Positions 10,532-59,632 of a DNA stretch of 64,000 nt are shown in pieces. A program made the position numbers and the translations under genes. The notes below the pieces were generated by a model, which saw nothing but the letters and a program-made list of their open reading frames with translations, had not been told where the DNA came from and searched no databases. The DNA comes from Octopus sinensis (taxonomy: Eukaryota). The DNA lies in NCBI RefSeq assembly GCF_006345805.1, contig NW_021833024.1, positions 1 to 64,000 on the forward strand, read 5' to 3'. The number at the start of each line of letters is the position of its first letter. Position 1 is the stretch's first letter.

Positions 10532-12081
10532 TCAGTGTTTGTTAGTGTTAGCTCCATCGAGTCCCCAGGAGTTGAAAAGTGGCATTCTAGCAGGGACCAT
10601 TCCTCGTAGCATATTTTGTGGCACAAACATGGCCGAACACGGCACATTGAGGGGATTCACCGGGTAGAAAGGAACAAACTGAGTCTGAGCAAATCCCTGG
10701 ACTCCAATTTTAGTCTTGTCGGTTAATTCGTCAATGTAATTGGAGACGTGTTCGGAGTGAGTTTTGGGCGTCTCCTGAGGCATGCCTCCAATCTGAACAA
10801 AATTTCCAAGGCAGGACAAGGAATATGTTTGGAAGTCATCTCGAATGTGCAAATTGGGGAGTTCGGAGGACTCGTCTTGGAGGACGGTCTCATTGGAAGT
10901 GACAGACACAGCATCCGACATGTCATCCTGCTCACGTGGGCGGTCAGTCTGGGAATAGTCCATGATCAAATCGTCATATAAAATGTCATTCGTATCCCTC
11001 CGCTCCTCGACTGGGTCGATTTTTGTTGCGTTTTTTAAAGGCGATGGACGGTTTTTATTAGCAACAACAACGTTCCCTATCATGTTTTTGAAGGGCTCGA
11101 GTATCTTCATTGAATTGAGGATTGAATTTATGTCCTTCGGGTCCTTCAACAACGGCCTTTTCGGAGGATCAGCCGGCCTGCCACAGTTCTCGGGGTCGTA
11201 GGACGAGTCGTCACTGTCGAGGGCATTGACCACCTCGTTCGGCCTTTTCCCGGAATCTAGATTGGTGATGAGTGATATACATTGGGCAGTCTGACTCGTC
11301 TCCCTTAGCAAATAAATAAATAAGGCCATCAAACCGTAAGGACGTGTCTCTGCAGGTGGTCGTACTTGGCAACCCGTGCCTTGAGGAGGGCAATGAATGC
11401 ACGTCTGAGGAGGACATCCCCCTCGACCTTGTCTAGCACAGCACAACCCTCCCTATGCACATCGCGGACTAGGATAGCAATAGAGCACCCAACCCTCCGC
11501 ATTGGTGGATATAGCACGACTAAGGGAGGCGAGGACACCCCGGACTAACACACGACAATCGAATAACTCGTCTTTCATACTAATAAGCTGTTTAACCTAC
11601 CAATTCACAAATATCAATAAACAGTGGCCGGCCTGTCATCCGCACTAATCGACTCCCCTCCGACATTACTCAGCAGACGTCCTTCCAACAACTGGAGATA
11701 CTCGGGAGGGTACACCCCTCGCTCACCCCACACCGACAGCAGTCGTTCCATCCTTCTGTGCATGTCCTCCCCCATCCCCGACACCACTTCCACCGCATCC
11801 GGCAGAACCACCGCGAACGGGCCTCGGAAGCCCACCCGTTTGGGGGATACCTGCACCAGTTCGTTGCACACGTAAAACAGTGGGAGGATTTTGTCCCTTT
11901 CTACAACGGGTGGATTGCCCTTACCGAACTCCTGGATTGCCTTGAACCAGCATTCCACTATTAAAATGTCAAATTTCTTGTAATGCAACAGCCAGAGGGA
12001 TATTTTTTGGATATCCTCGGTGTTCATGCTCACTTCATTCAGACGTTTTAATATTTTTGCTTCGTTCAAAATGAAAGACAT
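10532..12081 (-). CDS. CID-domain protein, RPRD1/RPRD2-like; 4 introns (24, 26, 25 nt and 11309-11334)
   Basis: N-terminal CID (IQKISLWLLH, LFYVCNELVQ, RLLSVWGERGVY), helical mid region, low-complexity tail; one reading frame after splicing. Confidence 0.8.
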
Positions 12082-13230
12082 TCCCACTTATTTTCTACCT
12101 TTCTTCTAAGAAAATTCACTGAATATAAAAACAAACTAACAAAGATGGAGCAACTGCAGTGACTTTATTTTATTGTAAAAATAATTAATATTTAACAAAT
12201 TGACATTTCACTATTATTTTAAGTAATTATTTATTAATTATTTTTAATCTCTCTGAAAACATCAATTATGTGGGGCTAAAAAGTAGCAACATTTTATCCA
12301 AAGTAAACATGTAAACAAGGTGTTTGACTCGCCTAAGTAGCCTCAGATCAAAGCATCGCCTGATACTTGTGACTGACTGTCAGTACTAAAGACCTGCGGA
12401 CTCTGAATAGATTTGAACAGGTCGTCTGGTCGACAGTTGAGTGGATATGACTCTGGAGTGCTCCTCCGCACAAGGAATGAGTCAGCTCTTCACCATTTCC
12501 TGTGAATCCCCACAAAGTAAAGTCCTTCAAGTCAGTTGAGTTAAATCAAATGTGAACGAGAAAGTGTGATGAGTATCCATAAAATTCGTAACAATTTGCA
12601 CTAATTATTTTTCTTTATTGAACAGTGTAAAGTATCTGGATCAATCAAAGTATAGATATAAATACAATTTTCCCTATAAATACGAGAATGTAGATAAGCT
12701 TTATCAACTTTCCACTTGCAATTTCTCCAATCAATTCGATAAAACGAGATTTTTTAATAATTTTTGTGAACAGTCAAGTACACTCCAGTAGGCCAGACAC
12801 ACTCTACTATCAATTAAACATTTTCAATTGAGAGTGACTGTTTATTTTGAAGTAAATTATGAAAAATGTGAGTTTGATGGATTAAAGGTGTAAGCTCAAA
12901 GAAAACGTAAATTCTCCGCCTCAGTTTAAAGAACGGGATCACCAGTCAAGGTTGGAATTCAAGTTGGAATGTTGGGAGTGCTGATGTGAAGTATGGATTA
13001 AAAGCACACAGTCATTAATGAAAGTTAATTAAAAGAAGGAAGTATGAATACCCAGTGATGTAATCCTATTTATGACGTTTTGGGAAAAGTGAATAGTTAA
13101 TAGATTGAAGTGTCATTGACTCATATTAGAATAGGTGGAGTTGTGTTGGTCAATATGTGACAATCATGACAGAAAATAAATATTCGCTAATTTCCGATAT
13201 ATAAACCGCAATGCACTGCGCCATCGTTTT

Positions 13231-14202
13231 ATGAATTATAACAACAATGTGTCGTGTACATCAATTCCCCTCGACCCCCCCGAAATCAACAGTGTGGGCG
13301 GCATTGGGAGGGAGAGAATCCTCAATCGAAATGGCCAATACAAAATGAAAATGTCCGGATGGGGCTATATGAGGAAAATAAAGGATTTGTATAATACATT
13401 TCTTGACCTAGCCTGGTGGAAAGTGTGTCTGATATATCCGATTGTGTTTATTATTTCCTGGCTCTTCTTCGGGCTGCTGTGGTTCCAAATATCAAAGGAG
13501 AAGGGACAGTGTTTGGCCAACGTCGACTCGTTTTATTCCGCGTTCCTGTTCTCCCTGGAGACACAGCGAACGATCGGGTACGGCCACCGATACATCAGAC
13601 AGACGTGTTTCAGTTCCTATGTGGTGCTAGTCCTGCAGTCGAGCATTGGAATTGTCATTCACGCACTCATGGTCGGAATGATGTACGACCGTTTCTCCAA
13701 AAACAACAATCGAGCACAGACTATTCTCTTCTCCAGAAACGCAGTGATCTGCCAGAGGGACAATTTCCCCTGTTTTGTATTCAGAACAGCTAACTTGCAG
13801 GCAACAGGCCTTGTCGACTGCCAGGTTGTTCTCAAGTTTGTGTATTCTACCATTACTGAAGAACAGGAGACTATTCTCCTTGATTTTATTAACCTCCAAG
13901 TCGGCGAGGATGACGTTTCTCAGGAAATTGAATTTTGTACTCCAGTCCTCATTGCACACAGAATCACGCCTGCTAGTCCAATCTACGACTATCTCGAAAA
14001 AGGTCTCGAAGAATCCCAATTTGAAATACTCGTTCTCCTGACTGGGTGCGACGAAGCCACTGGAGTCACCATCCAGGCTCGAGTCTCCTATCTTCCCAGA
14101 GATATCATCCTCAATCACCGATTCGTTATGATTGAGTCTTTGTCCAACTCGAATGATTGGATTCTTGATTTTAAAAAATTTCATTCTATTTTGCCCGAAT
14201 AA
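13231..14202 (+). CDS. Inward-rectifier K+ channel (Kir), intronless, 323 aa
   Basis: SAFLFSLETQRTIGYG filter, two TM helices, the two extracellular Cys, TILFSRNAVI, QARVSY. Confidence 0.95.
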   Translation: MNYNNNVSCTSIPLDPPEINSVGGIGRERILNRNGQYKMKMSGWGYMRKIKDLYNTFLDLAWWKVCLIYPIVFIISWLFFGLLWFQISKEKGQCLANVDSFYSAFLFSLETQRTIGYGHRYIRQTCFSSYVVLVLQSSIGIVIHALMVGMMYDRFSKNNNRAQTILFSRNAVICQRDNFPCFVFRTANLQATGLVDCQVVLKFVYSTITEEQETILLDFINLQVGEDDVSQEIEFCTPVLIAHRITPASPIYDYLEKGLEESQFEILVLLTGCDEATGVTIQARVSYLPRDIILNHRFVMIESLSNSNDWILDFKKFHSILPE

Positions 14203-18586: not shown

Positions 18587-21500
18587 ATCACTGTCTCATT
18601 TAAATATTTTCGGTTTTTAAGGATCTGAAAAATTCAAGAGTAAATGTATTTAATCTGATTTTATACAAAATATTTTTTGATTTGAACGTAAAAATTTTAT
18701 TTATGAACTTTCGCGATGCCAAATTTTTAATGCAACGGGCTAAGATGTCGATGTGTACTCCACCTAGAAATCAAAATAATAACAATATTATTTATTATAA
18801 CATTCCTAGACCAGGATGGACAACCGCATCGGAGAGGCAGAAGTCCGGTGGACGGAACATCGTTCTTGCCATTGCAGAAGGGACTGAGTGCACGATCCAT
18901 GAGGACTGGGTTAAATTACGTCCTTTCCCAAGTGTTGGGAAGTGCTTCCAGAATGGCCAGGAATAGGTAGCCTACCCTGCTTCAGTGCTTCAATCGACGA
19001 TTCCTCTAGAACTTATCGTTGAATGAAGAAACTTGACGAGATTCCTACTTCTGGCTTGCTAGTGAGACTGTCGGATTCGGTCACTCCGATAGTATTCCCT
19101 TCGTGTTCTAAACAACACGAGCACTAGAGTAGCAGTTATCACTACTCTTGCAAGTTAAGGAGATATTTAGTAGGCATATCTCTCGAATCATGTTGTTCCC
19201 CTTGCGGACCGCAGAGTGACCCGAAAGATACCTCGGTGACAACTTAGGAGTTACGTTATGAGTTGCATCAATCGTGTCATATTTTACGTGATCATGCGTA
19301 AGGCTCCATCGACAATGGACAAGATTTTTCTTTATTTCTACTCGCCACAGACAACCTATGATGAAATAATCCAGAAGCCTATGTCAAAAAGTAGGTGAAA
19401 GGAAAACATTGAAACGAAGGTAGCCGCAAGAAAGGTAGAGCTGGAAGCTCTGACTGGGTACATTCATAATGTGGGCAATGCGGTCAATGGCAAGACTCCC
19501 CTCATAGTGCGTACTGTACTTTGTCGAGAACGAACTGTCAAATAGGACCTATGCTCTCTTGATGACCGAGTCTTGTGATGTTTCTGATATCCACAAAAAT
19601 TTCGATGAGGCACTAACCCGTCTCTCGGACTGGAAGACAGTTGGCGTCGATAAGGTGCATAATTTTTTTATAAATCATCTTTCGTTTTGAAAAAAAGAAG
19701 GCTTGGCGAAACTGTACTTTTCTGACAAAAACAGTACTGTCACTGTGAACAAAGCGATGGCCCTTACAAAAAATCGATTACTAGGTCTTTGAATGACTTG
19801 GTTGAAGAAGAATACATTCTTCGGCATACAAGCTGATGCACGTGAGGACTTCTTCGCTGGTGATTATAGATGCCTGAAATGCACAGTTCGGGGAAAGTGG
19901 GTCTTTTTAAGGCTTCTAGCAATTCAGAAGATACATGGAAGACTGCTTGGCATTCCACAGTCAATGTCTTACAAATATGGTAGCATGGAATATAACGGAA
20001 GGGAAAACTGGAAAAATCAATTTAAATGCAATGAATGCACTTCAAGACTAGCTTAACTCACAGAAGGGAAAAACTAATTCTTACCCTAAAGGTCCTAATT
20101 TTTTAACGTTAACAAACAGGCCAGTTACATCGCTCTCTACATTCGATGATATAATGACTGTCTTTCCTTTGGCTAATAAAAATATTCGGATCTGGACTTC
20201 AGAATAATCAGCAAAACTCTTATTCTAATATCAGAGCAGGAATAATTCAGTCGAATTATTATCTTAATTAATGTTTCTTTTTTAGGGCACCTACTTCGCT
20301 GACATGTTACGTATCCACACCTCTCCTTTTTTATTGTAATAAGAAAGTCAACTCCTCTTACTAGTTTACTGACATTCTTAGTTCCTCTCTTCTAGCAATA
20401 AGACTATTCGTCTCCTCCGAAACTTGATGGTTGTCAACCCTCTTGCCATTTCTGTTTCCTCCATCCTTTTCTTGATTGTCACTGATTGGAATGACGCCAT
20501 AGTTGAGAAATCTATATTCAATTCAAAATTACGTTTTTTGGTCTTGTAAAAGTGCTATTCCTACACTAAGTTTTGATCGACGCTTCAAAATATTGTGGGA
20601 CGCTTCTCTTGTTCTATTTAAACTGTTATGTCATTTAAATCTTACCATCTTCAATACAATGATAACGATCGCCAATTTTTTGAAAAATGTTGTTTCAAGA
20701 GAATTCAGATATTTATATCTTGATCCTTACCTCGAATGACGAACCACGCCTTATTAAACTCCCAGTGAGTACGCGTTAACCAAAAATACTTGAAATACAA
20801 CTAAAAAACGCAATTTGTTTTCTCTACAAGAAACCAATCCATTAAAAGTCTGTAGTTTAAGCTGTCTATTAATTTAACTACAAGAGACAACTTGGGGAAG
20901 CATATGATAGATGTACGATGGGATATAATGAGGGAAAGCGATTACGAACAGATTCTAAAATATGATCTCGACGGATAGAATTGAATGCATTCTTGACATC
21001 TAGTTTAAGGTGGAAATGGACTCCATTATTTTCGGATGAAGCCAGCTGCCGTATACCATAGGCGGCTGCTTCACAAGCACCTTTCACACCTACGCCCAGT
21101 TGGATCGGCATTAAAAGTTCAGTTGCTTCACAGACTACCGAACGGCAAATAATTTTACCGCCAGGCGTCTAAAGACATTCCCAACAGCAATGGGTCGTAT
21201 TCCACCATCACATTTGTTTAGAGCCGTCAGATTTGCGGAGAAAAGTAAATCTTTTGCGAAAGGAGGGATCTCACCAGAGATAATTCTTGTGCATAGGCAC
21301 ATGATGGTCAACATTAGACGTCTTCCCGCCTCAGCAGTTACCGGAGAAAGAAGATCCTTGAGATGGATGGGTTTCATACCGTAATACCACCACTGCTACT
21401 AAAAGGGAAAGAACTGAGAGCAGCAGATACTTCTGCTGAAGTGACGGAAGAGGCGTTACAAACGGAACCAGTGACAGCTCAGGAATTTCGGATAGATCTT

Positions 21501-22886
21501 CCGGTGCCGCAGGGTGTTTTGAACGTAGTTGACTAAGAACCTTGTCCGAAGGAGGGGCAATAGATGAGTTAGAGCAGATAACACGTTGTTCAGAACACAA
21601 GATTGAGTGATCGCTGGGTAGAATTGTGTTTTAATTAAAATAATGTTTGTTTTCATTAATAAATATTTTAATTTTTGGTTATCCAATTATTGAAAACCTA
21701 ATAAATTATGCACGTGTAAACACGCGGTTGACATACCTTGGGGTTGTATTACTTTATTTGGTCGATCTTTATTTTTTATTTAATTGGATTCAGAAGGGAT
21801 ATTCTGCGATGTAGTTTCTTTTAATTGTTAAATTATCTGAAATTTCATCATTTGTAACATTTGCAAGTTTATTCCTTCAATCTGTATATTTTACTTATTT
21901 TGAAATTTTGAAAATTGAATTTCATCCTATTTTTAATGAAAATTTTTATTCGTTTTTATTCTTTATATTTTGATTTGATAAAGCTATTTATGATGTTTTT
22001 TAATGATATTTTCTATTGAAACAAGAAATCTGTTCTTGAGATTCTTTGCTCTTAGTAGTACAACTAAGAACCTCGCCTCCTCTTCGTCTATTCGAGTGTA
22101 CTCTTCACTGGGTCCCGTCTTATTCGATGAGAGAAATTAAATTCTCTCGGCACAGTCAATGCTGAACTGTGCTTAGTGCGGGAGTCTACATTGATTATAA
22201 ACATTCCTACAATTTCGGAGGGAGAGGACAAAGTCCTGGTTAAGCTGTGCAGACGATGCAAATTTTTTCTGCGTGTTTTGCTAATTTTAAATTTTGTAAA
22301 CAAAACATTCTTGCATTTTCTTAGCGATTGGACAAATTCCTGGTCGCGTTGAGATTCTTTGCTGTCTAAATATATGAGCAGGATTCATTACTAGAAATTT
22401 TGTTACAATTCTGCCCATATTCTTTATATTTTGAGTCGAAAAAGCTATTTATGATATTTTTTGATATTTCCTATTGAAACAAGAACGCCTGTTTTTTATT
22501 TATACATTTCTTATTTTCAATGGTGTTTTTGAATAAATCTCATTGATTATTTTTTATTTCGTAATTCTCTTGTGCAAGTAAGTTGCGCAATAATCCCGAT
22601 TGCATAACTCTGTTTAAAGTAAAAAGATAGCTAAGCTAATTAATGGCCTCACGAGACACCCGGCCAGCCTCGCGAATGGCGAAGCTGTTCCCTCGGATCA
22701 CAGCAATCGACAGACGTTCTAGGAGCCAAGAATACTCTCTTGGATCGTGGCTTGTCCTTGTAATCCGTCGAGCGAGCGAAGGAAGCGGAGTGTCTTGGGG
22801 CCATGATTAACTACTGAAATATTTGCCGACAATATTCGCTTTTTACACCTCCTCTAAAACCTTCTTTACTTCTCTAAGCCATTATT
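18587..22886 (+). repeat. 4.3-kb direct duplication, copy A (contains CRE RT fragment 20878-21590 and mosaic repeat 21577-22886)
   Basis: Colinear and near-identical to 26035-30343; ORFs 18682 and 26130 are identical. Confidence 0.95.
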
Positions 22887-26034: not shown

Positions 26035-29000
26035 ATCACTGTCTCATTTAAATACTTTCGGTTTTTAAGGATCTGAAAAATTCAAGAGTAAATGTATTTA
26101 ATCTGATTTTATACAAAATATTTTTTGATTTGAACGTAAAAATTTTATTTATGAACTTTCGCGATGCCAAATTTTTAATGCAACGGGCTAAGATGTCGAT
26201 GTGTACTCCACCTAGAAATCAAAATAATAACAATATTATTTATTATAACATTCCTAGACCAGGATGGACAACCGCATCGGAGAGGCAGAAGTCCGGTGGA
26301 CGGAACATCGTTCTTGCCATTGCAGAAGGGACTGAGTGCACGATCCATGAGGACTGGGTTAAATTACGTCCTTTCCCAAGTGTTGGGAAGTGCTTCCAGA
26401 ATGGCCAGGAATAGGTAGCCTACCCTGCTTCAGTGCTTCAATCGACGATTCCTCTAGAACTTATCGTTGAATGAAGAAACTTGACGAGATTCCTACTTCT
26501 GGCTTGCTAGTGAGACTGTCGGATTCGGTCACTCCGATAGTATGCCCTTCGTGTTCTAAACAACACGAGCACTAGAGTAGCAGTTATCACTACTCTTGCA
26601 AGTTAAGGAGATATTTAGTAGGCATATCTCTCGAATCATGTTGTTCCCCTTGCGGACCGCAGAGTGACCCGAAAGATACCTCGGTGACAACTTAGGAGTT
26701 ACGTTATGAGTTGCATCAATCGTGTCATATTTTACGTGATCATGCGTAAGGCTCCATCGACAATGGACAAGATTTTTCTTTATTTCTACTCGCCACAGAC
26801 AACCTATGATGAAATAATCCAGAAGCCTATGTCGAAAAGTAGGTGAAAGGAAAACATTGAAACGAAGGTAGCCGCAAGAAAGGTAGAGCTGCAAGCTCTG
26901 ACTGGGTACATTCATAATGTGGGCAATGCGGTCAATGGCAAGACTCCCCTCATAGTGCGTACTGTACTTTGTCGAGAACGAACTGTCAAATAGGACCTAT
27001 GCTCTCTTGATGACCGAGTCTTGTGATGTTTCTGACATCCACAAAAATTTCGATGAGGCACTAACCCGTCTCTCGGACTGGAAGACAGTTGGCGTCGATA
27101 AGGTGCATAATTTTTTTATAAATCATCTTTCGTTTTGAAAAAAGAAGGCTTGGCGAAACTGTACTTTTCTGACAAAAACAGTACTGTCACTGTGAACAAA
27201 GCGATGGCCCTTACAAAAAATCGATTACTAGGTCTTTGAATGACTTGGTTGAAGAAGAATACATTCTTCGGCATACAAGCTGATGCACGTGAGGACTTCT
27301 TCGCTGGTGATTATAGATGCCTGAAATGCACAGTTCGGGGAAAGTGGGTCTTTTTAAGGCTTCTAGCAATTCAGAAGATACATGGAAGACTGCTTGGCAT
27401 TCCACAGTCAATGTCTTACAAATATGGTAGCATGGAATATAACGGAAGGGAAAAACTGGAAAAATCAATTTAAATGCAATGAATGCACTTCAAGACTAGC
27501 TTAACTCACAGAAGGGAAAAACTAATTCTTACCCTAAAGGTCCTAATTTTTTAACGTTAACAAACAGGCCAGTTACATCGCTTCTCTACATTCGATGATA
27601 TAATGACTGTCTTTCCTTTGGCTAATAAAAATATTCGAATCTGGACTTCAGAATAATCAGCAAAACTCTTATTCTAATATCAGAGCAGGAATAATTCAGT
27701 CGAATTATTATCTTAATTAATGTTTCTTTTTTTAGGACACCTACTTCGCTGACATGTTACGTATCCACACCTCTCCTTTTTTTATTGTAATAAGAAAGTC
27801 AACTCCTCTTACTAGTTTACTGACATTCTTAGTTCCTCTCTTCTAGCAATAAGACTATTCGTCTCCTCCGAAACTTGATGGTTGTCAACCCTCTTGCCAT
27901 TTCTGTTTCCTCCATCCTTTTCTTGATTGTCACTGATTGGATTGACGCCATAGTTGAGAAATCTATATTCAATTCAAAATTACGTTTTTTGGTCTTGTAA
28001 AAGTGCTATTCCTACACTAAGTTTTGATCGACGCTTCAAAATATTGTGGGACGCTTCTCTTGTTCTATTTAAACTGTTATGTCATTTAAATTCTTACCAT
28101 CTTCAATACAATGATAACGATCGCCAATTTTTTGAAAAATGTTGTTTCAAGAGAATTCAGATATTTATATCTTGATCCTGACCTCGAATGACGAACCACG
28201 CCTTATTAAACTCCCAGTGAGTACGCGTTAACCAAAAATACTTGAAATACAACTAAAAAACGCAATTTGTTTTCTCTACAAGAAACCAATCCATTAAAAG
28301 TCTGTAGTTTAAGCTGTCTATTAATTTAACTACAAAAGACAACTTGGGGAAGCATATGATAGATGTACGATGGGATATAATGAGGGAAAGCGATTACGAA
28401 CAGATTCTAAAATATGATCTCGACGGATAGAATTGAATGCATTCTTGACATCTAGTTTAAGGTGGAAATGGACTCCATTATTTTCGGATGAAGCCAGCTG
28501 CCGTATACCATAGGCGGCTGCTTCACAAGCACCTTTCACACCTACGCCCAGTTGGATCGGCATTAAAAGTTCACTTGCTTCACAGACTACCGAACGGCAA
28601 ATAATTTTACCCGCCAGGCGTCTAAAGACATTCCCAACAGCAATGGGTCGTATTCCACCATCACATTTGTTTAGAGCAGTCAGATTTGCGGAGAAAAGTA
28701 AATCTTTTGCGAAAGGAGGGATCTCACCAGAGATAATTCTTGTGCATAGGCACATGATGGTCAACATTAGACGTCTTCCCGCCTCAGCAGTTACCGGAGA
28801 AAGAAGATCCTTGAGATGGATGGGTTTCATACCGTAATACCACCACTGCTACTAAAAGGGAAAGAACTGAGAGCAGCAGATACTTCTGCTGAAGTGACGG
28901 AAGATGCGTTACAAACGGAACCAGTGACAGCTCAGGAATTTCGGATAGATCTTCCGGTGCCGCAGGGTGTTTTGAACGTAGTTGACTAAGAACCTTGTCC

Positions 29001-30343
29001 GAAGGAGGGGCAATAGATGAGTTAGAGCAGATAACACGTTGTTCAGAACACAAGATTGAGTGATCGCTGGGTAGAATTGTGTTTTAATTAAAATAATGTT
29101 TGTTTTCATTAATAAATTATTTTAATTTTTGGTTATCCAATTATTGAAAACCTAATAAATTATGCACGTGTAAACACGCGGTTGACATACCTTGGGGTTG
29201 TATTACTTTATTTGGTCGATCTTTATTTTTTTATTTAATTGGATTCAGAAGGGATATTCTGCGATGTAGTTTCTTTTAATTGTTAAATTATCTGAAATTT
29301 CATCATTTTGTAACATTTGCAAGTTTATTCCTTCAATCTGTATATTTTACTTATTTTGAAATTTTGAAAATTGAATTTCATCCTATTTTTAATGAAAATT
29401 TTTATTCGTTTTTATTCTTTATATTTTGATTTGATAAAGCTATTTATGATGTTTTTTAATGATATTTTCTATTGAAACAAGAAATCTGTTCTTGAGATTC
29501 TTTGCTCTTAGTAGTACAACTAAGAACCTCGCCTCCTCTTCGTCTATTTCGAGTGTACTCTTCACTGGGTCCCGTCTTATTCGATGAGAGAAATTAAATT
29601 CTCTCGGCACAGTCAATGCTGAACTGTGCTTAGTGCGGGAGTCTACTCCGATTATAAACATTCCTACAATTTCGGAGGGAGAGGACAAAGTCCTGGTTAA
29701 GCTGTGCAGACGATGCAAATTTTTTCTGCGTGTTTTGCTAATTTTAAATTTTGTAAACAAAACATTCTTGCATTTTCTTAGCGATTGGACAAATTCCTGG
29801 TCGCGTTGAGATTCTTTGCTGTCTAAATATATGAGCAGGATTCATTACTAGAAATTTTGTTACAATTCTGCCCATATTCTTTATATTTTGAGTCGAAAAA
29901 GCTATTTATGATATTTTTTGATATTTCCTATTGAAACAAGAACGACTGTTTTTTATTTATACATTTCTTATTTTCAATGGTGTTTTTGAATAAATCTCAT
30001 TGATTATTTTTTATTTCGTAATTCTCTTGTGCAACTAAGTTGCGCAATAATCCCGATTGCATAACTCTGTTTAAAGTAAAAAGATAGCTAAGCTAATTAA
30101 TGGCCTCACGAGACACCCGGCAAGCCTCGCGAATGGCGAAGCTGTTCCCTCGGATCACATCAATCGACAGACGTTCCAGGAGCCAAGAATACTCTCTTGG
30201 ATTGTGGCTTGTCCTTGAAATCCGTCGAGCGAGCGAAGGAAGCGGATTGTCTTGGGGCCATGATTAACTACTGAAATATTTGCCGACAATATTCGCTTTT
30301 TACACCTCCTCTAAAACCTTCTTTACTTCTCTAAGCCATTATT
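26035..30343 (+). repeat. 4.3-kb direct duplication, copy B (CRE RT fragment 28330-29040, mosaic repeat 29028-30343)
   Basis: Matches copy A; RT motifs GIRPIAVGNVFRRL, QLGVG, KLDVKNAFNSI. Confidence 0.95.
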
Positions 30344-31826: not shown

Positions 31827-32326
31827 ATGTTCTCTTGTGGTGGTTTTGTGCGTAGTCTGGTGAGAATATCAAGGCGAACATACCACGAGAAAGTATTGGT
31901 GGGGATGAGTGTGGCAGGTGATCGACCACTACGAGAATCCTCGGAATGTGGGTTCCTTCGACAAGAAGGACGTGTCGGTGGGGACGGGAATAGTGGGGGC
32001 ACCAGCCTGTGGGGATGTAATGAAGATGCAGATAAAGGTGGTGGACAACATAATCGTGGATGTCAAGTTCAAGACATTCGGCTGCGGGTCGGCCATTGCT
32101 TCGAGTTCTCTGGTGACTGAGTGGATAAAGGGGAAGACTGTGAGGAGTGGTGTTATGTGGTAGTTGGACCAGGCCAAGTTGATATCGAATGAGGACATTG
32201 CCAAAGAATTGTCACTCCCCCCTATCAAACTGCACTGCTCATGTTTGGTCTCTCCTAATTGTAGTGCTCGCTCATAATTGCATTGCTGCTGCCATTTCCG
32301 ACTACCACTCCAAACAGAACACTTAA
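31827..32326 (+). CDS. ISCU: Fe-S cluster scaffold; introns of 25, 24 and 22 nt
   Basis: YHEK^VIDHYENPRNVGS, GAPACGDVM, FKTFGCGSAIASSS, LPPIKLHCS. Confidence 0.97.
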
Positions 32327-32402: not shown

Positions 32403-33431
32403 ATGATCACTCACCGTCAGCCTCCGAAGAAGGTGTTGGAGTATATAACCGAGTAGCTACTAATAATGGGGAGGAGTTATGCAGGCAAGACAAGCATGCG
32501 AGGAATAATATTCTCCAATCTGTTATCCTTCGACACGACTCGTCTGGCGGCGACATGTAATGAGGGGTATTGAGTTGTCTAGTCGAGGTGGAGTACACCG
32601 TCTTTAACTTCCTGGACAACCTGGTCCTCAAAATATGGGACTGCGGAGGGTGAGGATTGAGGGTGATGGCAGACAGGAGACCTTCCTGGAACAGTACTTC
32701 TCCACTCGACGGAACGAGGTGTTCGGAAACGCACACGTGCTGATATTCGTGTTCGACATAACCAGCAGAAGGGCAGAACAAGACATGGAGACATTCTACA
32801 GCTGTGTGCTCTGTCTGAAGGAGTTCTCTCCCGACGCCCGTGTGTTCTGCATGGTCAATAAAATGGACTTGGTGCCCCCACACCTCCGGGATGAGTTGTT
32901 TAACAAGAAGGTGACGGACGTGCAGTGGCTGGGGGATTCCTTCATGTGCTACCCCACCTCCATCAAGGACTCCTCCCTCTACAATGTACTCCCCCTCCCT
33001 CACACAGGCCTGGTCTTCCGTCGTCAACCAACTCATTCCCGACATTGAGAGGATCCAAACAATCCTCGACCAGTTCAGACTGGAAAATATTCTCGACAAG
33101 GCCGTCCTCTTTGAAAAGTCCTCGTTCCTGGTATTTCCGCCTGCTCATTCTTCTGGTTGTGGCCGCCTGTGGATCGGGGACGGAAATCGACTTCGAGAAG
33201 ATTTGTTCGGGAATGAAGCAATTTCTGCTAATTTGCCAGGAGGAGAGGAATTGCTTCAACTCGATTATGGCTCATCAGTTCGGCAGTTCGATCATCATTG
33301 CCCCCGTCACCAAAATGTTCTTCATTCTCACTTTGAGTAAAGATCACAACATCAGTATTCTTTTTATACATTTAGACGTCAACCTCATCCACAGAAATAT
33401 CCGCAAACTTGATCGGGAATTTCTGTTGTAG
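32403..33431 (+). CDS. RRAGA: Rag A/B (Gtr1) GTPase; 6 introns of 21-26 nt, one apparently GT-TG (33131-33155)
   Basis: KK^LLIMGRSYAGKTSMRGIIF, WDCGGQ, VLIFVFD, LYN^AWSSVV, LFEKSSFL, FEKICSGMKQF. Confidence 0.9.
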
Positions 33432-43991: not shown

Positions 43992-44558
43992 TCAAATATC
44001 TAACATTAAAAAAAATAATAACCCATTAAAACTAGCAAAATTAGAATGGAAAATTTGTTTTGAATCAATACACTGAGTTGAAGAGGAGTTTGAGTTTTTG
44101 AGTAAATTCTCAATTCCAAATGCCAAGTTCATTTTTAAATTTGAAGGAGCGGGAACCCCAAATATATTTCTATTTTCATAAAAAAAGTTTGGAGTGATCT
44201 CAGAATACTGACTTGTCCGATTTTTGTATCTGTCTATCTGCCAATATTTAATACAAAGTACAATTTCACTCGGCAGTGTGAATCGGTATACATATTGACA
44301 TCCTTTTACTTTTTTCATTATATTTTTTCTGTAGTAATGACGTAGTGAACGACTCATTTTATCATAATTCATTTTGAATCGACCTTTATGCAAACCCCAT
44401 TGTCTGGCAACTTCTTCCGGGTCCAGAAACTTAAACTCATTATGCTCATTTATCCAGTTTATGAGTTTTGAATATTTATGGCTATTAAGCAGTTCTAAGA
44501 GAAATTCCCATAAGGGCTTTTTGCCAAAAGAATATTGTTTTCGGTCAAAGGGTCTCAT
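43992..44558 (-). CDS. ETS-domain transcription factor, 188 aa, no intron seen
   Basis: LWEFLLELL...INW...DPEEVARQWG..K...MNYDKMSRSLRHYY...YVYRF. Confidence 0.95.
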   Translation of the reverse strand: MRPFDRKQYSFGKKPLWEFLLELLNSHKYSKLINWINEHNEFKFLDPEEVARQWGLHKGRFKMNYDKMSRSLRHYYRKNIMKKVKGCQYVYRFTLPSEIVLCIKYWQIDRYKNRTSQYSEITPNFFYENRNIFGVPAPSNLKMNLAFGIENLLKNSNSSSTQCIDSKQIFHSNFASFNGLLFFLMLDI

Positions 44559-44889
44559 AACTAATTTTTATATAAATCAATAGATAAATAACGCTATTCT
44601 ATAAATTTATCGCCTTAAATTTGGCCAGAGTTAATATTCGGTTTAATTTTATTAGCAAGTTTAAATTACTTACCAGTAATTTTTATAGATTACATGAACG
44701 AATGCTTTGAAATTTATTTAATACATATAATTTACGCTATGTTTCCTGGAAAACGCGATAAGTCATGTCAGATAAATAGTCTATTTCAAAATCAAACTCT
44801 TTGAAATGAAATACGAAAAAATAAACCCCAGTTCTTCTAAATCACTAACTAATTTGAAAATTAATATCATATTTCATTAGGACGTACCG

Positions 44890-49968: not shown

Positions 49969-52632
49969 ATGAGCGGAAACCCCGAACATATCCTTAAACT
50001 GGCCGAGCAAGCAGTGGCCCTGGACACCGCCAAATGCCCCTGCCAGGCCTACCACTACTACATCGTACTACTCAAACACGACAAATTAGATGGCAATCGA
50101 CCAATTCATTCAACTGGACAGGACATCCACCAGCAGACAACTCAGAGAACGAGTCGGAAAACTCGTCAAACGGGCCGAGCAACTCAAACCCGTCGGTAAA
50201 CACGATTTATACATTTCTAGTCATCAAAGCAAAAGACGAGGTTGATCTATAAAAGTAGGACTCCTAGACTGTAGGCTCTGTCCGGGCTCAGTTGGCTCAA
50301 ATCGAGCAGTCTATTAGGCTTAATGACAAGAAGCTGAGTCAAGGACTTGTTCAGAAGGCGTTGATACAACTGGAAAACTCGAGGGTTGTCGTTAATGAGT
50401 TGACTGGGCAGATGTGGATGCAGTTGATTGCGTCTGAGGAAAGCAATCATTTGGTGGATGAATTGACAGATTTGAATAGACGGTTCACAAATTGAAATAA
50501 AATTAATCAGAATTAATCAAATTGAAGACAAGGAGGATAATATTGATGACAAAACAAAAGAACGTTTGGTTTACACACAACAAGAACTTGTCGTTTTAAG
50601 GTTAATTAGTTAATTAAATTTAGAGCATCATCTTATATAAATAAAATAGAATATGTCCCCTTCATGAATGTAGACTATGGAGAAAATTTCGACCCAGCCT
50701 GTGGATTATTCAAGTAAATAAAGAGCTGTGAGTGGACAGTGACGAGAAGGGGGTCCTCAAATTGTCAAGACATCAAACAAACATGTTCAGTTCCTGGAAG
50801 AGACCCACTCAAATTGTCACCCTGCCAAAATTGATGAGTTCAGTTTCATTCCAAAATATTCGGCAAGTATTGTGTGATGTGGGAATGCAGAGCGTGGTCT
50901 CGGACTGCTCGTTCATATCCTCACTGATTGTGGCCGCTCAGTATCAGACCCGCTTCCGTCGTCCTCTCCTCTCGAATATAATATTCCCACAGTCGAGAGG
51001 ACTGCCTGTTTATAATCCAAAGGGCAAGTTCATGTTCAAACTGCACATCAACGGAGTGTGGAGAAAAGTATTTCCCCCCATTTCCTCAGATCACAATCGA
51101 CGACCGTCTGCCAGTCGGGAAGGACAATTCTCTGCTGTGTGCCTTTACCAAGGAGGACTTTTGGGTGTCTTTGTTGGAGAAGGCCTACATGAAAGTGATG
51201 GGCGGATACGACTTTCCCGGCTCCAACTCAGTTATGGCAATTCTCTATCAGCAGTCGATCGACCTGCATGCCCTCACTGCCTGGATTCCCGAACGAGTGG
51301 ACATTGACACTCTCCGGGACTCCTTTCCTCGAATAATGAAACATCACAACCGCGGGAACTGTCTTGTCACGGCTGCTTCGGGGGCCATAAGTGAGGAGTC
51401 GAGTGCCACTTTGGGCATTGTTTCTCGCCATTCATATTCAGTAATCAAACTTGTCGAACTGGAGGTATGTGCTGAGTGCATTCCAGAGTGGACTGAGGCT
51501 ACTTCGACTGAAGAATCCCTGGGCTGAAAAATGCTGGAAAGGGAGATACAGCAAATACGACAGAGATAGTTGGACTCCCCAACTCAAACATGAACTGCAA
51601 TACAACCCCCTGACTTGCCAGGATGAATCCACAGGCGAGTTCTGGATTGATTTGCAGTCGCTGACTAAATATTTCCAAGTCCTGTATTTGAACTGGTGTC
51701 CTTCGATGTTCCCCCATCAGACATGTTTCCACGAGTTTTGTCTCCACTTAGTTTTATAGTTCGTGGTCTGTAGAAAGCAGTCCAAAGAAAGACCGGATTT
51801 CCATCGGCGCCAATCCTCAATTCCACCTCAAGTTTTCCGCGACCAGTCCTGCTGTCATTTGGATATTACTATCGCGGCATATCACCGAAATTGTATTCCC
51901 CATTCTCCACCCGAACAGGACGATTTTGCCCACAACAAACGATTTGTGACAATCGACGTCTACAGGAGTATGGAGGGGCGTCGAATATATTACACCAGTC
52001 AGTTTTACTCATTGTTGGTAGATGACCCCAAGCCGTACCAAACGGGCGTCCGAGTGAACAGTCCGCACTATTTGTGTCAACTACACACCCAAGAGGGAAT
52101 TCATTCGTTCAATCTGGTTGTGTCCGAGTTTGAAAAATCGGCCTCAATCAACTTTACTTTGCGTGTTTATTCTTCAGTTCAGTTTGACTTGTCCAAAATA
52201 TCCGATTCCTGCACTTTCCGCGAGACTGTTGTTTGTGGGGCTGATTAGTAGATTGTGGGGGAATGGAAGTCCACAACTGCGGGTGGGTGTCCGAATAGTC
52301 GGCCGTATAGCTCTAATCCTACCTATTTGATCTCCGTGGGTGGAAAATGTCCCACAAATGATGTGGTTATAGAACTACGAGCCCCACTGTTTGTCACATT
52401 TCCAATTCATTTTAGTTCCCTATCAGTGGCAATTCACTTCACGTCTGCGGATTTATCAGTAGATAGAAAGCCGAGTGTTTACAGGACTGGATACTGTGTG
52501 GAGGAGTTGACTGGGATTCCCAGTGGAGTATACAAACTAGTGGTGTCCACGTACTCCCCCTCCCAACACGGCACGTTCATTGTGAACTTGAAATCAACTG
52601 CCTCACTCGCAGTCAGACAGGAGTTTTATTAA
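49969..52632 (+). CDS. CAPN7: Calpain-7/PalB; about 16 introns of 22-28 nt
   Basis: MIT domain (AVALD...YY...RAEQL), catalytic SDCSF, HSYS and KNPW, LEKAYMKVMGGYDFPGSNS, two C2-like domains (TAGGCPN). Confidence 0.95.
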
Positions 52633-57736: not shown

Positions 57737-58755
57737 ATGTGTTTGTTCCGTCGCATGATGAGTTCTCTTAGTAGCAAGTCATTTATGACTACCATTGTAT
57801 AGATCGATTATATGTAATGGTTTTGAACTAGCAAAACAAGTCAATCGACAGACAAAAAAACTCTTGGAAGAAGCCAAACACAACCCCACTCTCCACATTG
57901 TCCAGGTGGGGGACAACAAAGCCAGTTCTCTCTACATCAATAAAAAAGTATCAGTCTGTCGGAATATGGGTTGCCTTATTATTTCGAAATAGGGATTGAC
58001 GTGAATGTACAAAATATATCTGAGAATACATCGGAAGGGCAACTAGTGGCCCAGATTGAGGATTTGAACGCGGATTCCACTGTGGACACAATTATGGTAC
58101 AGCTGCCATTGCCGGGTCACATGTCGACTCGTCGAATATTGGATTCCGTCACTTTCTCCAAGGATGTCGACGGAATTGGAAGAACTAATCTATCGAATCT
58201 CCTCTTTTGTGGGAATCACATCCTCCCTCCTCCCGTCGCGGCCATTCTCCACATTCTGTCGTCCCACGGTGCCCTGATCTAATGAAGTAGACATATCCCT
58301 CTACGGGAAGAACGTGACCGTGGTGGGGCACTCCCCCCAACTTGGAATGCCCATTGCCTCCATTCTCAAATCTGCTGGTTCATTCCTGTTTTGTAGTCTA
58401 GGCAAGGCCAATGTGACAATGTTGAGTTCCAGTTGTAATTTGGATGACTTGAAACGGCATATTCTGGGGGCGAGTGTTGTGGTCAGTGTTTGTGGCATTC
58501 CGGGACTGATTCGGGGTGACATGGTGTCTGCGGGGACATGTGTTGTCGATGTGGGGACCACTCATGTGAAGGGGGAGAGGGGACAATCCAGGGTTGTCGG
58601 GGATTGTCATTTTGCTAGTTTGCAATATTTGTTGGTTTGTAGGCGTTGCCCCCAAGTGCAGTTTCATCACCCCCGTGCCCGGAGGAGTGGGGCCTGTCAC
58701 TGTTTCTATGCTTGTTCAGAATGTTGTTAAACTACATATTCAGAAATATTATTGA
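57737..58755 (+). CDS. Methylene-THF dehydrogenase/cyclohydrolase (FolD/MTHFD2-like); 5 introns of 22-25 nt
   Basis: [49 protein letters not shown]; Arg/Ser-rich N-terminus. Confidence 0.93.
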
Positions 58756-58908: not shown

Positions 58909-59574
58909 ATGCTACTTCGACATTTCTCAAAAATTTATACACGGCGCGGGGATTTCGGAAAGTCGAGTCTTTTCTCAGGAGAACGCCGCCACAAAAATGA
59001 CTCAATTTTTGAGACATTGGGGACCATCGACGAACTCTCCTCGGCCATCGGGTATTCCAGACCTCACATTTTCGTAGAATAGCTCGCTGTCACTGCTCTA
59101 CCCTCCCACACCTGGACTCAGAACTACTCTCAATCCAGTGTCTTCTCCAGGACGTGGGCTCAGTCATTGCCTCCCCCTCAATCACCAAAAGTCCCCTCCC
59201 ACTGTCGACCATTAGTGCAGTCCCTCATAACCAGTGGACATATCACTCAACTGGAGGAGTTGATCGACAAGCACACAGAAGGACTGCCCCCTCTCCGCGT
59301 CTTTATAATCCCTGTATCCACACAATGTGACTCCCAGTCGGGGGGGATATCCGCTGCCTCTCTCCACATGGCCCGCACGGTCTGTCGGCGGGCGGAGAGA
59401 CGAGTCGTGTCCTTGCTCGAAGGGGGGGACACTCATCCTCTCATTTGTCAAAAATTTTTGAACAGGTTATTTCTTTTGTGGTTATTGTATAGGCTTAGTG
59501 ATTACTTGTTTACTGCTGCCCGTGTTTGTTCACATGAGTTTGGGGTAAAACATGATGTTTACTCGAAAAAATAA
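58909..59574 (+). CDS. MMAB: Cob(I)alamin adenosyltransferase; 4 introns of 24-27 nt
   Basis: [26 protein letters not shown]^[17 protein letters not shown]^[10 protein letters not shown]. Confidence 0.95.
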
Positions 59575-59632
59575 TAAATTAATTATAAATACATATTTTA
59601 AATGAACGATTAATTTTTAATAAATATTTAAA

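Follow-up and report, generated by a model that had tools for sequence, protein, structure and literature searches.

The window analysed here, i.e. the whole 64,000-nt stretch, is the first part of a 349,644-nt contig (G000:C9495:1-64000) of the 2.72 Gb Octopus sinensis assembly. It carries on its forward strand a RagA gene (32403..33431) with seven exons, six introns and a product of 295 amino acids. Three of the exon frames match Pfam PF04670 (80.5, 40.7 and 38.1 bits, for a cut-off of 22), which places the product in the Gtr1/RagA family. Five of the introns are GT-AG: those at 32650-32672, 32986-33007 and 33355-33375 are absent from spliced contigs, and those at 32433-32456 and 32557-32582 lie outside the contig coverage. 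The remaining one, intron 5 (33131..33155; 25 nt, phase 0), starts with GT and ends with TG. It separates exon 5 (33008..33130), which ends with LFEKSSFL and has the same borders as the host exon AWSS..FERATFL, from exon 6 (33156..33354), which begins with VVAACGSGTEIDFEKIC, the host counterpart beginning with VISYW..HRFEKIS. Other genes in the window encode a CID-domain protein (11617-12087), an inward-rectifier channel (13180-14199), IscU (31827-32326), an ETS protein (43995-44567), a calpain (about 49970-52630), FolD (57740-58755) and a cobalamin adenosyltransferase (59000-59575); besides RagA, IscU is the only window gene with introns that was compared to homologues. A 4.3-kb duplication (18587-22886 versus 26035-30343) shows 99.2% identity and 11 gaps.

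Conserved genes are present twice in the assembly, once on the host chromosomes with long introns and once on small contigs with introns of 19-35 nt. According to the accessible text of the dicyemid genome papers, dicyemid introns have a median length of 27 nt (PMC6543705), and their splice signals are reduced to a GTa donor and an AG acceptor (PMC13644364). An aldolase exon on one of the small contigs (C8901) is 93% identical to the aldolase of Dicyema acuticephalum, the next matches being at 63% or below. Repeats common to the window and the small tiny-intron contigs gave 16 hits, against none in the 770 kb of host DNA compared, and the 4-mer signature of the window is that of these contigs. 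Because of the aldolase identity, the common repeats and the matching signature, we conclude that the window is dicyemid (Dicyema) DNA, and not host DNA. The small contigs (C9495, C8901, C8697, C9300, C1794 and others) hold much of a dicyemid genome, with its housekeeping genes intact. Also found there were a very divergent EF-1alpha-like gene (C1794, L143) and many degenerate, frameshifted duplicates of chaperonin and MCM genes (on C11858, C12598, C6343, C8546, C1295 and C2167).

AG is the near-universal 3' end of introns. That of RagA intron 5 is CTG (33153..33155), in the assembly and in a DNA contig alike; the AG acceptor of U2-type introns is lacking. Its length is the modal one in this organism (43 of 239 introns), and its 5' splice site is GTA (33131..33133), with A at +3 as in 85 of the 239. 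A branch site is predicted, from the sequence and from the population peak, in the motif CTCAT (33144..33148): its A at 33147 (-9) is the only A after intron position 3, and the frequency of A along the 239 introns is maximal at -8 (0.42) and -9 (0.32). An unbroken pyrimidine tract follows from -8 to -3 (33148..33153), a property of only nine of the 239 canonical introns; the overall pyrimidine share is equalled or exceeded in five. The terminal G is the first one beyond the predicted branch A. The nearest downstream AG (33196..33197) lies 42 nt beyond the TG.

Excision of 33131-33155 yields the intact 295-amino-acid reading frame, with the junction FL|VVAACGSGTEIDFEKIC. Retention leads to a frameshift and an early stop, splicing to the AG at 33196-33197 (the 67-nt form) would cost 14 residues including the conserved FE, and every canonical alternative of up to 80 nt removes the start of exon 6. 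The earlier note, made from the letters alone, had called a GT-TG intron of typical size, rich in pyrimidines, whose removal joins the two frames; it had also remarked that no AG occurs before 33196-33197, and that use of that first AG would delete FE. All these points are borne out. Closing the reading frame with canonical introns only, and without homology, took a false path through RagA and misplaced three start or stop coordinates, and is hence no test. A 5-nt direct repeat, CTGGT (33128..33157; copies at 33128-33132 and 33153-33157), lets the cut slide over six registers, and the donor is canonical in the GT..TG register only.

The window was compared with contigs from four (X1-X4) of nine listed sequencing runs, a level of evidence at which minor isoforms and single-SNP variants drop out. 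X1, possibly the assembly's own sample, gave a short-read DNA contig over 32529-33600 at a depth of 61, with no gap and a single differing letter (at 32901, a T-for-C difference common to all four runs). The earlier note had asked whether genomic reads show T or A at 33154: the contig reads CTG, not CAG, with neither gap nor other letter at 33153-33155, and for that reason the TG is neither a T-for-A substitution nor the remnant of a lost A. The assembly does contain errors of this sort, since it lacks a G after 31900 (in IscU intron 1) relative to the X1 contig and shows other single-base deletions at surveyed genes, but an error concealing a CAG or TAG acceptor in RagA is largely refuted by the same contig, and we hold it to be extremely unlikely. 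Several short variant DNA contigs cover 32493-32553 (exon 2), which is a polymorphic or repeat-like patch.

X2, X3 and X4 were taken as cDNA on the sole ground that their contigs are without introns. Exactly 25 nt are missing at intron 5 from a spliced contig of X2, from the same sample as X1 (828 nt, depth 12.1), and from one of X3, which comes from another study (328 nt, depth 3.2). The gap is placed at 33128 by left-alignment within the CTGGT repeat, and is the same deletion as 33131-33155; a 31-nt GT..TG reading is ruled out, the spliced contigs lacking 25 nt. X4 gave no gap row at intron 5, and one of its contigs begins matching at 33153, as a spliced molecule would. Six GT-AG introns are likewise skipped in this comparison. 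Neither retention of intron 5 nor the 67-nt form was seen among the contigs of the spliced runs, from which rare forms drop out. The locus is thus present in spliced contigs, the AG at 33197 is unused in them, and the single-intron case, i.e. that intron 5 is a real feature, is well supported. The earlier note went further and held the TG site to be constitutive: it is the only form seen in the contigs, but constitutive use itself does not follow, as contigs drop minor isoforms.

The CTGGT repeat raises the question of whether reverse transcriptase could have switched template across it, producing a false skip in a gene that is really broken or unspliced at this point. Repeats of at least 5 nt are rare at the true junctions of this organism (1 of 110 canonical ones), and according to the accessible text of a human survey such repeats are linked to false junctions (PMC4176328). 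Yet in two studies the main path of assembly contains the 25-nt skip, which restores the only RagA reading frame, falls at the codon of a host intron and has the modal length, and the fold across the region is unremarkable (z = -0.92); template switching is accordingly very improbable. Introns of the IRE1 (XBP1/HAC1) type have CNGCNG loops at both cuts. Intron 5 does not look like one of these, with no match to CNGCNG in 33100-33190 and no notable fold.

A different objection is that the sample is heterozygous for a splice-null mutation: the TG allele would be dead, through retention and decay, and the spliced mRNA would come from a second haplotype, or from a co-infecting strain, with AG. At 33097 the X2 transcript differs from the assembly and the X1 DNA contig by a synonymous T in place of C, and because this T is absent from the X1 contig the X2 mRNA perhaps comes from a haplotype whose intron was not seen. 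In addition, single-SNP variants are lost from contigs, heterozygosity is 1.24% in Dicyema japonicum (PMC6736024, in the part of that paper accessible to us), and X3, with four other letters in 328 nt, represents a different population whose genomic acceptor was not seen. Against this, TG is the majority base in the assembly and in the depth-61 contig, the spliced X3 contig has C at 33097, the assembly holds no second RagA copy or haplotig, and two of the candidates described below (RagC and IleRS) are non-AG on both of two contigs, so that the class looks fixed elsewhere. We consider the heterozygous explanation unlikely.

The host RagA gene has a phase-0 GT-AG intron (GTAAGA..TGTAG) at FERATFL|VISYW, the same codon as that of intron 5, and GT..TG is the one among the six registers that agrees with it. 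As judged from this alignment, the intron position is ancestral, and GT-AG in the host; an ancestral AG acceptor would then have been mutated at -2 in the dicyemid. There is a single dicyemid RagA copy in the assembly, and therefore no intact paralogue. When RagA exon 4 was used to look for homologues in longer proteins, none of 45 candidates proved to be one, and no RagA of another dicyemid was thereby obtained.

Introns of the minor (U12) type tolerate odd 3' ends, and the consensus of their donors is RTATCCTT. Two U6atac-like genes on cobiont-like contigs (L288:1987-2073, on C8703, 51.7 bits for a cut-off of 33; L289:1937-2048, 39.6 bits) suggest that the minor spliceosome has been retained. 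The donor of intron 5, however, matches this consensus at four of nine positions, no U12 branch motif was found by eye, none of 319 called introns begins with RTATCC, and the orthologous host introns are U2-type (donors GTAAGA, GTGAGT and GTAAGT), which makes a minor intron highly unlikely.

A tandem arrangement as in human could also be envisaged: U2AF would bind the AG at 33196-33197 first, and ligation would then occur at the upstream TG. In the accessible text of the relevant papers, TG 3' splice sites of human U2 introns all had an AG partner, never more than 28 nt away, and were judged incapable of constitutive use (Szafranski 2007, PMC2374985), and 22 of 23 GT-TG introns of the fly have a similar alternative splice (PMC4528330). 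The U2AF1 gene is moreover intact in the dicyemid. Here the AG is 42 nt off, beyond the 28-nt limit, and it is used in none of the contigs, from which rare forms drop out; in the MCM2 candidate (see below) one has to go 60 nt from the donor to meet an AG. The tandem reading is therefore quite unlikely. There remains the explanation that we regard as probable, namely that intron 5 is a real 25-nt dicyemid intron ending in TG, that spliced transcripts lack it, and that the ordinary major (U2) spliceosome likely removes it, using the TG as the sole acceptor.

To see how far RagA stands alone, 32 dicyemid genes were aligned to references: 30 to their host orthologues (nine chaperonins, Prp8, seven MCM, six RNA polymerase subunits, four tRNA synthetases, Brr2, SF3B1 and clathrin) and two aldolases to the D. 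acuticephalum protein. This yielded 231 distinct clean canonical introns, seven of them with a GC donor; further ones seen by eye were left uncounted. The non-canonical calls of the aligner were inspected by eye: GT-AG ends were an obvious alternative for most of them, several stood in poor alignment and could not be judged, and none was counted. The count omits the frameshifted or divergent duplicates L164, L167, L174 and L181, five duplicate chaperonin loci, L171, L179 and the proteasome loci, for which the work covered the pairing with host loci; the dropped duplicate L167 has a GT..AT intron where the intact copy L170 has AG.

Two further candidates emerged from these alignments and a third from RagC; in each case the host gene has a GT-AG intron at the corresponding codon. 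The first is a 23-nt GT..TG intron of MCM2 (C8593:89896-89918, L168), at MVE|TVYKNYQR, for which a lost A in the assembly is possible. The second is a 22-nt GT..GG intron of the mitochondrial IleRS gene (C8851:170064-170043, reverse strand, L251), at YEK|GLIY; it is also GG on a second contig (C10424) that differs by six SNPs elsewhere. The third lies in a RagC-like gene (C9532:106092-106115, L011), where an in-frame stop requires either a 24-nt GT..GG or a 21-nt GT..TG intron, the 24-nt reading being the one that agrees with the host position. It is identical on two contigs (C9532 and C725) that are about 1.3% different elsewhere, bearing in mind that the paired contigs of RagC, like those of IleRS, could share reads. 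Both Rag genes would thus have a non-AG intron, that of RagC being read from the assembly sequence. In RagA intron 5 and the three candidates alike, position -1 is still G, position -3 is a pyrimidine, and only -2 varies.

Three non-AG acceptors in about 240-260 unselected introns correspond to about 1% (95% interval 0.2-3.3% for 3/260). Under a rough, self-estimated error expectation of 0.16, the Poisson chance of three such candidates is 0.0006; a positional control (three of four anomalies at -2, p = 0.05) is weaker than this result. No anomaly at the last acceptor base was seen in the intact surveyed genes. The fourth anomaly is at a donor: a 22-nt intron in Brr2 (L268, about C12467:411265) reads TT..AG, most simply because one G of a GG was lost, although a genuine unusual donor is possible. 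It is plausible, on these alignments, that TG and GG ends occur at about 1% of the introns of this organism through a lineage-wide tolerance.

The splicing factors offered no ready cause: no spliceosome change explaining the tolerance was found in the Prp8 alpha-finger region, U2AF1 or U6. The alpha-finger region of dicyemid Prp8 is as in the host. U6, on a cobiont-like contig, has an intact ACAGAGA box and core boxes; host copies dominated another U6 search. Residue S34 of U2AF1 contacts position -3, not -2; the single intact dicyemid U2AF1 gene (L244, C9510) has Thr at the equivalent position. Three further 5' copies of U2AF1 (L242, L243 and L245) are cut off by mobile-element DNA. In the yeast P complex, according to the accessible text of the structural study, the last G of the intron forms a pair with G(+1), the A at -2 forms one with the branch A, and the pyrimidine at -3 contacts Prp8; when -2 is U, the pairing to the branch A is distorted and the second step is strongly defective (bioRxiv 10.1101/212811).

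Given that intron 5 ends in TG in the DNA, is excised exactly and occupies an ancestral position, we infer a mechanism as follows. The 3' end of so short an intron would be set by the branch A at -9, the unbroken pyrimidine tract and the first downstream G. Pairing of G(-1) with G(+1) would be preserved, as would the contact of the pyrimidine at -3, and only the pair between A(-2) and the branch A given up. Geometry is the likely cause: because a 25-nt intron holds no competing site, a weaker second step may be tolerated. The same tolerance is likely behind the TG and GG ends at about 1% of dicyemid introns. In its general form, for which we see a slightly better than even chance, the proposal is that in dicyemids the 3' splice site may be set by branch-point distance and the last G, about 1% of introns having TG or GG as their sole acceptor, among them introns of the conserved essential genes RagA, RagC, MCM2 and mitochondrial IleRS, with apparently unaltered Prp8, U6 and U2AF1.

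Several known systems come close to this situation, the comparisons below holding for the accessible portions of the papers. The human TG sites have in common with dicyemid intron 5 the GT..TG ends, the pyrimidine at -3 and a U2-type donor, whereas the dicyemid intron has only 25 nt and its nearest AG is distant and unused (PMC2374985). In the fly, 37 GT-TG, GT-GG and GT-CG introns were counted among about 60,000, and 35 of them have a similar alternative splice (five of six for GT-GG); sole cases exist and are very rare. The classes are the same as in the dicyemid, and the G at -1 is likewise kept, but the dicyemid has about three in 240-260 and none with a near AG (PMC4528330). The ultra-short introns of Dicyema and the myxobolids have medians of 22-27 nt, a GTa donor and a weak branch A preceding the 3' end, and their acceptor is described as AG only (PMC13644364, PMC6543705, PMC6736024). 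In C. elegans the pyrimidine tract can similarly drive splicing without AG, the non-AG sites there being adjacent alternative or mutant-induced ones (PMC4484395). In the human survey 24% of non-canonical sites were constitutive, a figure not split by type (PMC4176328), and elsewhere 3' splice flexibility was generally greater, GT-TG and GT-GG going unmentioned in the main text (PMC7072748). Our literature search, outside which fell subscription papers and figures, found no report of non-AG acceptors in tiny introns or in Rozella, of sole non-AG sites or, together with a word search of the PMC13644364 supplement, of non-AG intron ends in dicyemids.

The structure of the spliceosome accounts for the reading of A(-2). 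RagA is a natural, expressed, single-copy animal gene using TG alone, with hundreds of AG introns of the same size as controls. With it one can ask whether intron length, branch distance or the pyrimidine tract takes the place of the AG check. Gene models of tiny-intron parasites that admit only GT-AG will truncate or drop real genes. If the figure of about 1% TG and GG acceptors is true, hundreds of introns would be hidden by such annotation, and the use of these acceptors would be a convergent trait of tiny-intron genomes.
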